From a virus (lineage: Duplodnaviria > Caudoviricetes): DNA of 36,026 nt. The stretch lies in IMG/VR virus record IMGVR_UViG_3300023107_000008, positions 1 to 36,026 of that record; one strand, 5' to 3'. Below the pieces are notes generated by a model. The model did not search any database. It was not told where the DNA came from and saw only the letters and a program-made list of their open reading frames with translations. The position numbers and the translations under genes were made by a program. Positions 11,979 to 34,975 of this stretch are shown here, piece after piece. Position 1 is the stretch's first letter; each line of letters begins with the position of its first letter.

Positions 11979-11988
11979 CTATTGGTGT

Positions 11989-12096
11989 AATCAAGAGTCG
12001 TTGTGAGGGAGGTTTGTAATGGGGCGGGGCTATTAGCTCCAATCGACAAACTCGACATTTCACCACCAACTCCCTCACAACGACTCTCAATTGATT
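11989..12096 (-). ncRNA. Candidate structured RNA closed by perfect 18-bp stem
   Basis: AGAGTCGTTGTGAGGGAG (11994-12011) / CTCCCTCACAACGACTCT (12070-12087). Confidence 0.6.
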
Positions 12097-12963: not shown

Positions 12964-13151
12964 GTGCTATAGCTATACGTTAGTTCCATGTTACTCTCTC
13001 TTAAGGTTGCGAGCTGGCTATGTCTTTATAGCTACGGAACTTGAGCCAAATTGTTTATATTGTTTGATCCAATCAGATTGCCTTGTAGTTATCTGGCGTT
13101 GGTCTCTATTCATCCAACTGGTTGGTGAGCCTTTCCTTTGCTCATGTATCT

Positions 13152-13180
13152 ATAGTACTACAGCTTACTTATTAAGTCAA
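13152..13180 (-). promoter_or_regulatory. Early sigma70-type promoter TTGACT-17-TACTAT with TAAGCTGTAG spacer
   Basis: Near-consensus, repeated motif. Confidence 0.85.
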
Positions 13181-13785
13181 TACCTTTTAAGTATTTCATC
13201 TACTTTAGCCTTATAAGATGCAATCATATCCTGTAGCTGAACTGAACTTATTTTAGTTCCAGAGGTACTTAATCTCTCTAATTCATCAACAGCTTCACGC
13301 CCGTGGGTATCAATCATGTACTTTGTATAAGGTATATAATTGCCTTTTAAGAAGACATTGCATCTCATACACTGCACGTTACAGTTCATTTCGTTCCATC
13401 TGGTAGCTTGACGACCTCTCGTGTAGAAGTGGCCATTTTGTTGATCTTGCCAACGTCGTACATCATTACAGGTTACACATGTTGCCATTAAGTCATTTTC
13501 GTAGAGCACAGCATGCCTTAATCGTATATACCACGAGAATATACTGTCCAGATCTTTAACTAGCTTTGAACGGCTCATAGGCTTTTTCTTTTTAATGACT
13601 TTACTTTTAGCTGATTTTAAAGCTTTGTCTATTTGTTTATCAAGATAGCTCTTTTGACTTGCATTTAATTTCTCTAATGCGTCTTTATAAATATCCTTTT
13701 TAATAGGTTTCTTCGGCTTTAAAGGACAAAATGCAGCAGTATGGTAAATACTGCTGCATAGTTTGCACGGATTTGACTTAATCAT
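13177..13785 (-). CDS. ninG: NinG/Rap-family endonuclease
   Basis: FSWYIRLR, CVTC, NGHFYTRG, RWNEMNCNVQC.RCN. Confidence 0.85.
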   Translation of the reverse strand: MIKSNPCKLCSSIYHTAAFCPLKPKKPIKKDIYKDALEKLNASQKSYLDKQIDKALKSAKSKVIKKKKPMSRSKLVKDLDSIFSWYIRLRHAVLYENDLMATCVTCNDVRRWQDQQNGHFYTRGRQATRWNEMNCNVQCMRCNVFLKGNYIPYTKYMIDTHGREAVDELERLSTSGTKISSVQLQDMIASYKAKVDEILKRY

Positions 13786-14342
13786 AGTTCTTCTATGTAT
13801 TTATCTGCTAGCTTCCACTTAATACAATCTGAAGCTTGAACCCAAAAGTTATCATCTTTCATGTGTTCTTCAAGGTCTGGAACTTCAGCATACTTTTCAT
13901 AGTGTTTTAAAAGCTGCTTAGTCCACCTTTTCCATCTTGCTGAGTCTCGATCTATTTGCATAGGAGTATACTTCCTACCACCATCGAAACTACCATAATG
14001 TAAAAGGTGTTCTCCGTATTTACTTATATATCTATGTCCTGGAGTTCCTACAACTGCGAGTAATGAACCACAACTATAGGCATGACCTGTTACAATAGTT
14101 TTTACTGTAATACCTTCACGTTTTGCCTGTTCAAGTAATTCAACTAAGTGTACTAGAAGATAGCCATTACCGCCTGGACTATTTATATAGACCTCAAGTT
14201 CAGCATCTTTTCTATCTTTTAGTTCTTTTATTTTCTTAGTGATATACCAGACTAAACCATTTTCCATCTCTTCATCGAACTCGCCAATTATGTATATACG
14301 GTTATCGTCAGAGAATACTCGTTGACTTTCTTTGTTAGCCAT
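13782..14342 (-). CDS. clpP: ClpP-like serine protease subunit
   Basis: YINSPGG, AYSCGS (Ser), LLH (His), DDNFW. Confidence 0.85.
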   Translation of the reverse strand: MANKESQRVFSDDNRIYIIGEFDEEMENGLVWYITKKIKELKDRKDAELEVYINSPGGNGYLLVHLVELLEQAKREGITVKTIVTGHAYSCGSLLAVVGTPGHRYISKYGEHLLHYGSFDGGRKYTPMQIDRDSARWKRWTKQLLKHYEKYAEVPDLEEHMKDDNFWVQASDCIKWKLADKYIEEL

Positions 14343-15589: not shown

Positions 15590-15611
15590 CCTTTCCTTTG
15601 TTTGCCTCTTT

Positions 15612-15640
15612 ATAATACTACAGCTTACTAATTAAGTCAA
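15612..15640 (-). promoter_or_regulatory. Early sigma70-type promoter TTGACT-17-TATTAT with TAAGCTGTAG spacer
   Basis: Near-identical to 13152-13180. Confidence 0.85.
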
Positions 15641-15889
15641 TGATAATCTAGGAGCGTTCTCTTCCATTTTCTTAGCTAGTTTTCGTGCAGCTGCACGACG
15701 TTTCTTTTCTTCTTTATTCCATTCGTTATATTGAAGGGTAATCATATCAAGATGGATTGAAACAAACTGTCTAGTATCTCTTTTGATAAAGTGCATTTGT
15801 GTAGGTGGAATAGATAGTTGTGGTATGAGGTTATTTTCTTCGCAATACCAACTAATGGCTTTTAAATCACTACTCTTCAGTTTCGTCAT
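15632..15889 (-). CDS. Hypothetical protein
   Basis: AAGGA RBS, in operon. Confidence 0.65.
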   Translation of the reverse strand: MTKLKSSDLKAISWYCEENNLIPQLSIPPTQMHFIKRDTRQFVSIHLDMITLQYNEWNKEEKKRRAAARKLAKKMEENAPRLSLT

Positions 15890-17755: not shown

Positions 17756-17781
17756 TATAACCTTTCCTTTGTTATGTTTAT

Positions 17782-17810
17782 ATATTACTACAGCTTAAAA
17801 TTTTAGTCAA
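17782..17810 (-). promoter_or_regulatory. Main leftward early promoter TTGACT-17-TAATAT with TAAGCTGTAG spacer
   Basis: Near-consensus; heads early operon; AAGGAAAGG RBS follows. Confidence 0.85.
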
Positions 17811-17918
17811 TACATTCTATAACACTTATCTGCATTTTTACTAATTATGGTATGAAATTTTGGACTTGTCAAATAAAAAACAGTTTGCAAAGCGAAAAAA
17901 ATAATGTATATTAGGGAT

Positions 17919-18058
17919 AAGGACTTACGATTTTCTACCAAAAATTGTAGGTTCTGACCAAAACACCCATATATAGGGCTTGCAATGTTGCGATCTACAC
18001 TATAAAATATAAATAGGTAGAAAATCGTAACCAAAGCCGCCCTAGTAGGCGGTTTTTT
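17919..18058 (+). ncRNA. Structured RNA A (closing stem, A-rich bubble, branched top, terminator)
   Basis: Upstream TTGCAA-16-TATATT; perfect 15-bp stem 17925-17939/18016-18030; inner stem TGTAGGT/ATCTACA. Confidence 0.7.
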
Positions 18059-18076
18059 GGTGGGTGAAATGTGTAT
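18026..18076 (+). repeat. 51-bp direct repeat, copy 1, containing intrinsic terminator
   Basis: CGTAACCAAAGCCGCCCTAGTAGGCGGTTTTTTGGTGGGTGAAATGTGTAT identical to 19144-19194. Confidence 0.95.
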
Positions 18077-18150
18077 GACTGGCCAGTCTTCAAGCGGAAC
18101 ACGAGGGGTTCGCATCTATTAACTTTGCTCAAGGGGGACTATTAAAGGCC

Positions 18151-18426
18151 ATGTTTAAAGGAAACAATGACAATGTTATTTCAAAGGTTGAAATAAACAA
18201 TGTCAATGACAATGTAAGTAGTAAGAATAAGAAAACAGAGAATCAAGTAAATGCTATAGCAGACCGTATAAGAGCCAAATTAAATGGAGACGACACTAAC
18301 ATGGGATTCTACTATACGGTGGGCTGGAGGCTCTCAGAAAGCGTCATAAACGATAATTTAGAGAAGGCTATGAAGGGTAATAACCCACAACGCTATTTTA
18401 CATGGCTTTGTAAACGATATATGTAA
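18151..18426 (+). CDS. Small putative replication initiator/helicase-loader-like protein
   Basis: C-terminal helical domain ending NPQRYFTWL, reminiscent of DnaD/replisome-organiser C-termini; iteron-like repeats in its 5' part. Confidence 0.45.
   Translation: MFKGNNDNVISKVEINNVNDNVSSKNKKTENQVNAIADRIRAKLNGDDTNMGFYYTVGWRLSESVINDNLEKAMKGNNPQRYFTWLCKRYM
18164..18214. repeat. Iteron-like array, putative origin
   Basis: Five (A/T)CAATG hexamers (2+3) around palindrome TTATTTCAA-AGG-TTGAAATAA. Confidence 0.55.
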
Positions 18427-18455
18427 TGATACAATCTTTCGTTAAGGAGAAATAA

Positions 18456-18887
18456 ATGCAATCAACTAAAAATAATAAGAGAAAGAAACTACTGATAGTA
18501 CTGAGCTATTTTGTAGTCTTCGGGTTTGGGATAATAGCAGGGACGGGTAATCAGAATAGTGTGTCATCGACAACATCTTCTTCAGACGTTGCTCCTGCAG
18601 CAGAGGTAAAACAGGAGCCAATTAATGTTGCTCTCTCAGGCAGCTCTAATACGGCCACAGAACCGTTTAAATTGCGAGCTGGATTAGCTACCTTTAAGAT
18701 GCACTACGGCGGTAATTCCAACTTTATTGTCAGGCTGCTCGATACGAAGGGTAATGACATAGAAGGACTCGTTAATGAGATTGGGTCATTCGATGGATCT
18801 AAGGCCGTACAAATACCCCGTGAAGGCGAGTACGTGCTTAATTTGGAGCATGCAATGGGTGATTGGACTGTTAATATAACCCAATAA
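18456..18887 (+). CDS. Membrane-anchored/secreted beta-sandwich protein
   Basis: Basic N-term plus TM helix, Ser/Thr linker; TGATACAAT extended -10 at 18427-18435; AAGGAG RBS. Confidence 0.75.
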   Translation: MQSTKNNKRKKLLIVLSYFVVFGFGIIAGTGNQNSVSSTTSSSDVAPAAEVKQEPINVALSGSSNTATEPFKLRAGLATFKMHYGGNSNFIVRLLDTKGNDIEGLVNEIGSFDGSKAVQIPREGEYVLNLEHAMGDWTVNITQ

Positions 18888-18918
18888 TAATTTCTTGTGT
18901 CGCCCAACATACATTTTC

Positions 18919-18952
18919 AGTCCCACCTTATCAGAGGTGGGACTTTGTTTTT
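18919..18952 (+). terminator. Intrinsic terminator
   Basis: AGTCCCACCT/AGGTGGGACT stem then TTGTTTTT. Confidence 0.85.
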
Positions 18953-19031
18953 ACTACTATTAAGATCTTATACACCACATATAGCGTGTGTTGTGCTTGT
19001 GGTTTAGTGATCAAAATGATACTATTTTCTT

Positions 19032-19178
19032 TAAGAGTGTACGGTGTTTATCTCAATAAATCTGTGGACTCTACATCTTAAAATTGCATGATTAGGGTTG
19101 TGTTTGTTACGAATGTCCACTAGTATAAAAGGTGAGATAAGCCCGTAACCAAAGCCGCCCTAGTAGGCGGTTTTTTGG
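19032..19178 (+). ncRNA. Structured RNA B, paralog of RNA A
   Basis: Upstream TTGTGG-17-TACTAT with extended TG; stem 19040-19055/19133-19147; inner GTGGAC/GTCCAC; same terminator. Confidence 0.7.
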
Positions 19179-19194
19179 TGGGTGAAATGTGTAT
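19144..19194 (+). repeat. 51-bp direct repeat, copy 2
   Basis: Identical to 18026-18076. Confidence 0.95.
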
Positions 19195-19196
19195 AT

Positions 19197-19291
19197 AAAA
19201 AAGAAGCCTCCAGTTGTGTAACTGTGTGGAGAGGCTTCTTATTGGGGTTACCGTGCTATTGACGGTCTAAGGTGCGAGCTGACAAGGCCAT
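19197..19291 (-). ncRNA. Candidate small RNA D
   Basis: TGGTATATT at 19298-19306; ACCGT/ACGGT hairpin; AAGAAGCCTC/GAGGCTTCTT stem plus T-run. Confidence 0.55.
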
Positions 19292-20753: not shown

Positions 20754-21233
20754 TTATCGTTCCTTAATATTTAGGGTAACAGAATTTCTTGCTTTATGTG
20801 CCTTAACACCCCTTGAGTTTAGAAACCTCATCTGATCATGTATTACTCCTAGCTTTTCGTCGTGAGGGGTATATCTTGAGTAGTGCTCTGACTGAAGTGA
20901 TATAGCTTTCAATATTAATCTTGCTAGTTCTTTTTTATTAGTTAAGTATGGTTTCACTAGAGGCAATATAGTTTTTATTTCCCTACTTTTTATAGTCCAC
21001 CTATGCTTCATCTTTAAGTTAGATCGCTTATCATAAAAGCTATTGAATACACCTACGTCCGTATATGTATTTTTTATCCACTCCATCATTAAGGGGTTTG
21101 TATTGTCTATACAGACTGTAAATTTCCATGTGTAACCGCGTTTGCAGTTATTTGTTTTTTCTTTTACGAACGATATTGTACCTTCGCCATCGAGAAGCCC
21201 AGCTAGATAGGCATTATCAGTGGCTTTGCTCAC
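20754..21233 (-). CDS. Free-standing single-motif LAGLIDADG homing endonuclease
   Basis: AYLAGLLDGEGTI; LPLVKPYL..KK. Confidence 0.9.
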   Translation of the reverse strand: MSKATDNAYLAGLLDGEGTISFVKEKTNNCKRGYTWKFTVCIDNTNPLMMEWIKNTYTDVGVFNSFYDKRSNLKMKHRWTIKSREIKTILPLVKPYLTNKKELARLILKAISLQSEHYSRYTPHDEKLGVIHDQMRFLNSRGVKAHKARNSVTLNIKER

Positions 21234-34377: not shown

Positions 34378-34932
34378 CTAATGCGAGTAGCTATCAATGG
34401 CTTGTTTTGCTTCAGCGACAGTATGGAAATAGCCAACTTGGTATCTCTTGCCATTTATAGTTTTACGAGCAGACCATTTATTAACTATCTTTGACCAGTG
34501 TACGCCCGTGACACCGCTCTTGCTTCTCGATTGCACTCTTTTATTTAACTGTTGCTCGGAGTCAGTAGCCCATCTAACGTTACCTGGTATATATCCTTTA
34601 TCATTATCTATACGATCAATGGAGTACTTACCTTCTGGCTTCTTGCCTATATGTAAATAGAAAGCCATAAAATCATTGATCCATTTCTTAGATATAGTTA
34701 TTCCTCTACCCGCATACTCCTCATAGTCTTTGTTATTTGGGTTAAGGCAACGGCTTTTAATTTTACACCATGTATCATACTCGGCCGTATGCCTCATGCC
34801 ATGCTTAGTATTTCCTTTTGCGAGACTACCTTTTGGCTGATTATTGTACCAGATCATATAGTGGTGTCTGCACATGCCATGTCTCAAGTACTTCTCTTTA
34901 TTGTGGCATTGGGGATAAGTGCAGTTACTCAT
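34378..34932 (-). CDS. HNH endonuclease with C-terminal AP2 DNA-binding domain (free-standing homing endonuclease)
   Basis: SIDRIDNDKGY.PGNVRWAT; SGVTGVHW...W.AR...G.F...EA; likely start MSNC at 34932. Confidence 0.9.
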   Translation of the reverse strand: MSNCTYPQCHNKEKYLRHGMCRHHYMIWYNNQPKGSLAKGNTKHGMRHTAEYDTWCKIKSRCLNPNNKDYEEYAGRGITISKKWINDFMAFYLHIGKKPEGKYSIDRIDNDKGYIPGNVRWATDSEQQLNKRVQSRSKSGVTGVHWSKIVNKWSARKTINGKRYQVGYFHTVAEAKQAIDSYSH

Positions 34933-34946
34933 ATCTCCATCATAAC

Positions 34947-34975
34947 AAAAAAGAAAGGGCATTACTACCCTTTCT
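34947..34975 (-). terminator. Terminator after major capsid gene
   Basis: AGAAAGGG/CCCTTTCT stem plus T-run. Confidence 0.85.

Follow-up and report, generated by a model that had tools for sequence, protein, structure and literature searches.

The two structured elements (units A and B) located on the plus strand of the window (the whole 36,026-nucleotide stretch of phage DNA that was analysed) are genuine and form part of a conserved family that lies 5' of homologs of a gene coding for a 91-residue protein. According to the reading that we favor, to which we assign a probability of roughly two in three, these units would be antisense-controlled transcription attenuators, in which an RNA of about 44 nt, transcribed from a promoter nested in the leader and directed against the first hairpin of the same leader, would limit the expression of a putative replication initiator. 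The sequence features described below suggest that they likely represent a variant of antisense-driven attenuation with a new layout.

Unit A begins with a predicted outer promoter, P1 (−35 at 17884/17885, −10 at 17907–17912), assigned by promoter scan and conservation, and continues with a 5' hairpin (17920–17955, 15 bp, loop 17935–17940), formed in the minimum free energy (MFE) structure by a segment r1 and the adjacent r2. The target r1 (17925–17939), which the first-pass annotation of this DNA had described as the 5' strand of a closing stem, is complementary to a downstream seed, r4 (18016–18030), the two forming an inverted repeat of 15 bp without mismatch; none of 20 locally shuffled windows contained 13-bp repeats so spaced, and the real window contains one other (11994–12088). 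A G-rich segment, r3 (17974–17979), which abuts the inner −35 and is predicted to act as an antiterminator by pairing with the 5' arm and loop of the terminator, precedes the nested promoter, P2 (17980–18008; −35 17980–17985, 17-bp spacer, −10 18003–18008), also assigned by scan and conservation. In the long RNA, the seed finds a partner in the P2 spacer, a degenerate copy of r1. The small RNA predicted to start from P2 (18015–18058, about 44 nt) consists of the linear seed and one hairpin, that of the terminator (18033–18058). About 90 nt separate this terminator from the start codon of the 91-residue gene (18151–18426); the rest of the leader embeds a palindrome (18077–18088) and a short inverted repeat (18094–18113), both loosely conserved. 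The palindrome, the short inverted repeat and a CTATTAA motif recur in relatives between terminator and start codon (18077–18135 in the window).

The putative initiator gene is followed by a cassette cargo gene, coding for a secreted or membrane-anchored protein of 143 residues that matches no known family (18456–18887), and by a terminator closing the two-gene cassette (18919–18954). Unit B lies 3' of this second gene and its terminator, and has a hairpin downstream (19201–19240, terminator-like, with the U-tract on the minus strand) and no initiator gene. It comprises a predicted P1 (18997–19025), a 5' hairpin in the MFE structure (19034–19072) with its target r1 (19040–19055), r3 (19091–19098) and a nested P2 (−35 19098–19103, −10 19121–19126), both assigned by conservation, and a predicted small RNA of about 44 nt (19133–19176), in which a different seed (19133–19147) is joined to the terminator of unit A (19151–19176). 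Its closing stem (19040–19055/19133–19147) has 15 pairs, including one G-U, plus one bulge. The two units share only their last 51 bp, i.e., an identical direct repeat (18026–18076 and 19144–19194) embedding the seed end, the terminator and 18 bp beyond. Further small transcripts facing unit B may be bounded, on the minus strand, by a pair of terminator-like hairpins and an extended −10 motif between 19196 and 19345.

Re-reading of the sequence confirmed what the first-pass annotation had reported at the level of coordinates and motifs: the 15-bp closing stems, the bubbles (6/16 and 8/12 nt), the inner stems, the −35/17/−10 arrangement embedded in the 3' strand of both units, and the identical terminator. 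A TTG-type −35 of P1 is shared, at one position, by 13 of 15 units. The promoter scan lists both promoters of unit A and neither of unit B, and the promoter-like matches of the region are no more than chance would give (11 versus 13.8 ± 5.1 expected); for these reasons, the promoter assignments rest on conservation.

Profile searches with the 91-residue protein retrieved 213 relatives, and 340 among cluster representatives. The window itself (L126), repeats of other loci (L127–L129, L133, L134, L152–L154, L157, and L170), loci with no upstream DNA (L141 and L178), and copies of L199 (L220) and L120 (L218) were left out before counting. The 24 distinct homolog loci with upstream DNA include eight with the full same-strand unit, one with a 3' fragment, seven with a flipped arrangement (described below), and eight with neither; an additional homolog search yielded one more flipped locus, and 19 of 20 loci without a seed/target pair (18 near-identical integrase-linked phages and L156). 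Furthermore, a motif scan that used neither the pairing nor the gene gave 205 matches in 152 loci, and the four matches with the gene downstream ranked 1, 2, 5, and 13 by seed:target energy. Two units without a detected gene (L319 and L199) were added to the set by eye; L289, L179/L230, and L259 had good scan scores, but are G+C-rich and lack the layout by eye.

The covariance-model search proposed by the first-pass annotation found no further strong copy of the unit in 38 sources; on whole genomes, a weak match (E 0.03) led, in genome G001, to a further unit, complete and followed by a gene copy of its own. The two modules of this genome (L331, 361–960, minus strand, and L120) have different seeds, each precede their own gene copy, would be separated by about 1.4 kb in a circular genome, and do not cross-pair (−7.1 and −3.6 kcal/mol). 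No Rfam model matched the window or 15 related loci, with only chance matches of the leader/terminator type at E ≤ 10. The 30-nt constant end had no exact match in viral contigs, a looser terminator pattern retrieved 119 loci, mostly generic, and the genome-contig search a single spurious 9-residue match. As for other leaders of this gene family, a 13-nt inverted repeat in L144 (about 2420–2600) brings together the loop of a hairpin resembling a terminator and a short downstream stretch 5' of the gene, a possible third layout; integrase-linked loci (L158–L176, L124, L125, L143, and L146–L148) have simpler leaders, made of hairpins and a terminator with no seed/target pair, and L148 adjoins a ribosomal L33 gene in a chromosome.

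The 16 same-strand units, in which the small RNA lies on the strand of the leader (A, B and 14 others), share one layout with differing letters: two promoter motifs 88–109 bp apart, r1, the r1:r2 hairpin, r3, r4, and an intrinsic terminator, present in all 16. The P2 columns TTG and TA..AT are invariant, at a 17-bp spacing, in all ten units of an unaided alignment (the first ten); the later five were excluded from this count because the P2 motifs belonged to the pattern with which they had been searched. Moreover, the mean seed:r1 energy is −21.0 kcal/mol for cognate and −5.7 kcal/mol for non-cognate pairs, the cognate one being the best in 15/15 units, with three cross-pairs below −13 kcal/mol; cross-pairing between A and B is not strong (−10.6 and −5.4 kcal/mol). 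The seed:target duplex is one contiguous stretch of 13–18 bp, and the pairing begins 7 to 9 nt after the −10 of P2 in all 15 units. The sequence UCAA, which we take to be a candidate U-turn, is found at or adjoining the target end, at the hairpin loop, in 11 of 16 targets. According to these data, the third hypothesis of the first-pass annotation, that of nested promoters yielding RNAs of about 45 nt with a variable seed and a constant hairpin, is supported and represents the core of the system. A reading of the repeats as protein operators was rejected, as the repeats change fully while the protein stays 60–70% identical, always face the small RNA in antisense, and differ in ways that lean to G-U.

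In eight loci (L122, L131, L135, L145, L123, L149, L150, and L177), r1 and the second copy are direct repeats, and at the sequence level the small RNA is counter-transcribed to the leader. All eight flipped loci harbor, on the opposite strand, a near-consensus promoter (the best match within a 28-nt window) whose −10 ends 4–8 nt before the second repeat copy, followed by a hairpin and a U-run. Exact direct repeats of 13–14 nt occur in four of them and were never reached in 200 shuffles; r1 falls within a 5' hairpin in seven. A closing stem is impossible in these loci and the short RNA still matches r1, which implies that selection keeps the small RNA and its target, in trans. Two of them, L122 and L135, belong to the supported clade of the window (97/98); on the tree (29 rows, with weak support for most branches), the flipped state must have changed at least twice to fit the supported branches.

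Leader-plus-gene cassettes are bounded by direct repeats ending at the outer −10 in L122 (1–1224), L135 (1–1439), and L131 (2329–5633), the last with two tandem 1633-bp cassette copies; two of these repeat-bounded cassettes begin a contig and might reflect assembly. In the window, the 51-bp repeats delimit a cassette of 1118 bp, and recombination between them would place the B leader before the gene, so that unit B may represent a relic of shuffling, an alternative to be switched in, or a module for exclusion. A search for a phage with the unit B target gave seven 16-mer matches, none with the leader layout by eye.

Compared with shuffled sequences, the plus strand folds stably as RNA (z −7.4 for unit A, −5.0 for unit B). 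For each full unit, the MFE structure combines a 5' hairpin with a rod: r1 pairs with the adjacent r2, and the stretch that starts just before the inner −35 and extends across the spacer is paired to r4 and to the terminator's 5' arm, which is thus taken up. The rod closed by r1 and r4, which the first-pass annotation had given as the fold, lies 3.0 (A) and 0.5 (B) kcal/mol higher, and the competing 5' hairpin and antiterminator are absent from that reading. At the decision point, hairpin plus rod is the MFE in 12 of 16 units. The pairing of r3 with the terminator was recovered unaided by RNAalifold, and in 15/15 units it beats the mean of shuffled r3, with 0–26 of 300 shuffles equally good. 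With permutation p values that ignore the relatedness of the units, r3:terminator (cognate −13.6 versus −10.3; p 5e-5, 15 units) and r2:r3 (p 2.5e-4, 15 units) co-vary modestly, and pairing of the spacer with r4 is conserved (p 5e-5, 16 units); the cognate r1:r2 pairing is the best in 13 of 15 units. In a strand-neutral count, G-U outnumbers A-C (44:16, p 2e-4).

Based on these predicted pairings, the following mechanism can be depicted. Without the small RNA, the nascent P1 transcript is predicted to fold r1:r2, and then r3/−35/spacer with r4/terminator 5' arm into the rod, with the −10 in its loop; such a rod would hide the transcript's own r4 and block the terminator, so that the polymerase would read into the gene. 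The P2 transcript lacks r3 and the spacer, hence its seed would be free and it would always terminate. The small RNA would enter at the loop of the r1:r2 hairpin and release r2, which may pair with r3/spacer before r4 is made, giving the inner stem and two-hairpin top of the first-pass annotation; the rod would be delayed and the terminator would form. The level of the small RNA would track genome dosage, and this might result in copy control and in self/non-self exclusion by seed; unit B would be a second specificity introduced by cassette shuffling. Computed energies favor small-RNA binding to the nascent leader in 16/16 units (−9 to −20 kcal/mol), and in both A and B the computed effect of bound small RNA is the shift of r2 onto r3/spacer. 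We infer that the small RNA causes termination. At equilibrium, blocking r1 lowers terminator-arm pairing by at most 0.14 in 15/15 units and the rod survives, and blocking both r1 and r4 lowers it clearly in four of ten units. With bound small RNA, refolding barriers are higher in 7 of 16 units, equal in five, and lower in four (Wilcoxon p 0.25); they rise from 4.3 to 7.1 in unit A and from 8.3 to 10.3 in unit B.

These equilibrium and barrier computations do not show the direction of the switch, and this favors a different output, with the small RNA and its target being real but acting through translation control, activation, or a ColE1-like control of a primer or R-loop running into the gene repeats. 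The lack of a visible sense-strand U-tract terminator in most flipped loci points the same way, as does the precedent of pSK41 RNAI, which controls translation from about 100 nt upstream (PMC5703833). However, the same-strand units all combine their terminator between P1 and the gene with a co-varying antiterminator, and the start codon of the window lies well past the terminator, at the distance given above. We therefore regard another output as unlikely, albeit the best placed of the alternatives.

According to the first hypothesis of the first-pass annotation, the units would be 6S-like decoys: the terminated RNA of about 140 nt would fold as a rod and bind the sigma70 holoenzyme, and may template a seed-identical product RNA. 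The finished RNA does have the r1:r4 fold as its MFE in 10 of 16 units, with the −10 unpaired in 9 of 16, and a truncated, short-armed B. subtilis 6S-1 is described as still cycling in vitro with about 10-fold lower affinity (PMC8876501). Nevertheless, the 6S check in Rfam was negative (RF00013 matched none of five genomes at E ≤ 10, the control being positive in 7/14), and the architecture that the two units had been said to share is not conserved across the family: bubbles vary from 1 to 15 nt on the 5' side and from 0 to 26 nt on the 3' side, with one to three branches, and the inner 6–7-bp stem, between r2 and the spacer end, is not partner-specific (p 0.30). The predicted P1 RNAs measure, terminator included, 128–156 nt, versus 160–200 nt for 6S RNA (PMC8414754); the eight flipped loci cannot form the rod; and a DNA promoter starting at a site that matches the seed boundary accounts for the promoter-like letters. 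This makes a 6S-like role very improbable.

Still less credible is a switch working only in cis, in which r4 would invade r1 within the same transcript and the inner promoter would be incidental or serve some other purpose only. In its favor, the prevailing structure at the decision point is cis r1:r4 in four of the 15 units, and a fifth shows this pairing at 0.54; against this stand the invariant P2 columns and their spacing, the coincidence of the seed boundary with the predicted P2 start site, and the flipped loci, where the pairing is in trans only. Finally, a single-stranded DNA hairpin promoter of the Frpo/sso type priming replication (the second first-pass hypothesis) is the least probable of all, since, although no primase or helicase was found among 30 scanned proteins of the window, the candidate origin repeats are found 150 bp away, and sso elements are reported to fold single-stranded and serve as promoters (PMC4595007), unit B folds as DNA no better than shuffles (z −1.9 and −1.0; −3.4 and −3.7 for unit A), the G-U excess indicates plus-strand RNA, the outer promoter and terminator delimit the element as a transcript, and the flipped relatives keep the seed:target pairing with direct, not inverted, repeats, unable to form the rod.

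The gene under the proposed control may, on weak grounds, be a replication initiator. Its product is modeled as a low-complexity N-terminal third and a four-helix domain (pLDDT 76), and belongs to no Pfam or PHROG family; among the 25 families listed of 63, DnaB_2 accounted for 0 of 113 members. Structural alignment with DnaD-type proteins (2zc2, Z 5.4, rmsd 2.5 over 58; 2i5u, Z 5.1, rmsd 2.1 over 55) gave scores not above the background of unrelated helical bundles, which reach Z 6.6; the atlas leads were all below 0.8, Foldseek returned no match at E ≤ 0.001, and no match was found in phage records, plasmid records, or solved structures. The gene contains five (A/T)CAATG repeats (18164–18214, plus strand), arranged as two groups at a distance of 33 bp, which represent candidate origin iterons. 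The N/D/V-rich start of the protein is encoded by this DNA repeat with fixed synonymous codons (23 genes): AAT:AAC is 84:1 before D/V and GAC:GAT 30:2 before N, compared to 55:52 for the C-terminal portion. No other place in the window has the tandem form, and in distant homologs the 6-bp periodicity persists with other letters. An origin inside the initiator gene is familiar from lambdoid phages.

A tyrosine integrase is present in none of 11 records with the RNA module (eight of these at least 90% complete) and in all eight tested lineages without it (L124, L125, L143, L146, L147, L148, L156, and L160; L144 was left out of this comparison), which do not amount to 19 independent events, as the labels cluster on the tree. 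No serine recombinase or ParA was found in the five genomes tested, and the absence of ParA is not accounted for by a low-copy plasmid model.

The window is a tailed-phage genome, in which the protein scan identified terminase, portal, capsid, tail tube, and amidase; the single virus record has a completeness rating of 100%, and the site of the elements is a short rightward island diverging from leftward recombination genes. The host may belong to the Patescibacteria, the lead being the single named relative of a KGG protein, from a Ca. Nomurabacteria bin (51% identity); similar proteins are also found in Saccharibacteria, which adds to this lead. All matches of the capsid protein are below 28% identity, and ARAGORN detected no tRNA. 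The early genes include a ClpP-like protein (13782–14342), and a 52-bp promoter-plus-ribosome-site module present three times (13130–13181, 15590–15641, and 17760–17811) drives the leftward ones. In the early operon, the minus strand at 11983–12093 forms a 22-bp stem under a branched top (z −5.8) with no Rfam or tRNA match. A LAGLIDADG endonuclease lies 3' of the lysis genes (20754–21233), and an AP2-domain protein 3' of the capsid gene (34378–34962).

Antisense-controlled attenuation of this kind would be compact, in that a stretch of about 140 bp would encode the small RNA with its promoter as well as the switch and the antiterminator, and its relatives show a step between counter-transcribed (pT181-like) and same-strand (P4/P1-like) control by simple inversion. 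It makes testable how small phages devoid of an integrase restrain their replication and keep related phages out, and it supplies attenuators that naturally do not cross-react, a class with few available natural representatives (PMC3753616); moreover, a tempting false lead, that of a phage-borne 6S RNA, is removed. As a broader scenario, possible but rather doubtful, the integrase-less phages of probable Patescibacteria may be plasmid-like prophages in which the 44-nt RNA sets both copy number and immunity, the seeds correspond to incompatibility groups, the cassettes flip and shuffle, and unit B is a captured weapon silencing the initiator of a rival phage. If true, at least 16 transcription attenuators, orthogonal to one another, could be drawn from this family as from a natural library.

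A published description of the element was not found in the literature searched, and supplementary motif catalogues could hold the family. Similarly to 6S RNA, the finished long RNA can form a closing stem and an A-rich bubble with a −10-like sequence; unlike it, it is shorter, lacks a conserved bubble, a long apical arm, and a model match, and the rod is absent from the flipped relatives. With C4 of P1/P7 (immI), a same-strand immunity RNA whose variable pairing sequence sets phage specificity (PMC5320573), and for which a promoter, P2c4, lies near a C4 binding site (PMC8198154), the units share a same-strand RNA with a variable pairing sequence. C4 is a 77-nt three-stem RNA, processed by RNase P, pairing through two loops and blocking the ribosome site of an antirepressor operon; its three stems, two-loop pairing, and ribosome-site block were not seen here. 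In satellite phage P4, the CI RNA acts with seqA/seqC as a same-strand antisense in the leader of the replication operon, with premature termination in the lysogen (PMC4825925); here too the antisense RNA is encoded on the same strand, inside the leader it would control. CI is cut from the primary transcript and pairs on both sides, whereas the units have a predicted inner promoter, which would make processing from a long transcript unnecessary, and one main upstream target; P4 CI and C4-type Rfam models did not match them.

In pT181 (RNAI/repC) and pIP501 (RNAIII/repR), an antisense RNA is directed to the rep leader, and the 5' arm of the terminator pairs alternatively with an upstream "pre-emptor" (PMC5703833 and PMC2879508). 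As in these systems, a short untranslated RNA with its own promoter is complementary, at the sequence level, to the leader of a putative replication gene, and the leader combines an intrinsic terminator with an upstream segment computed to pair with its 5' arm in a co-varying manner; the flipped relatives are, like pT181, counter-transcribed. In contrast to both plasmids, the RNA of the units would be encoded on the strand of the leader and start at a promoter nested therein, with a length of about 44 nt and a linear seed; the terminator under its proposed control is also its own, its match is to a separate copy of the seed lying upstream, and the promoter itself is predicted to form the antiterminator rod.
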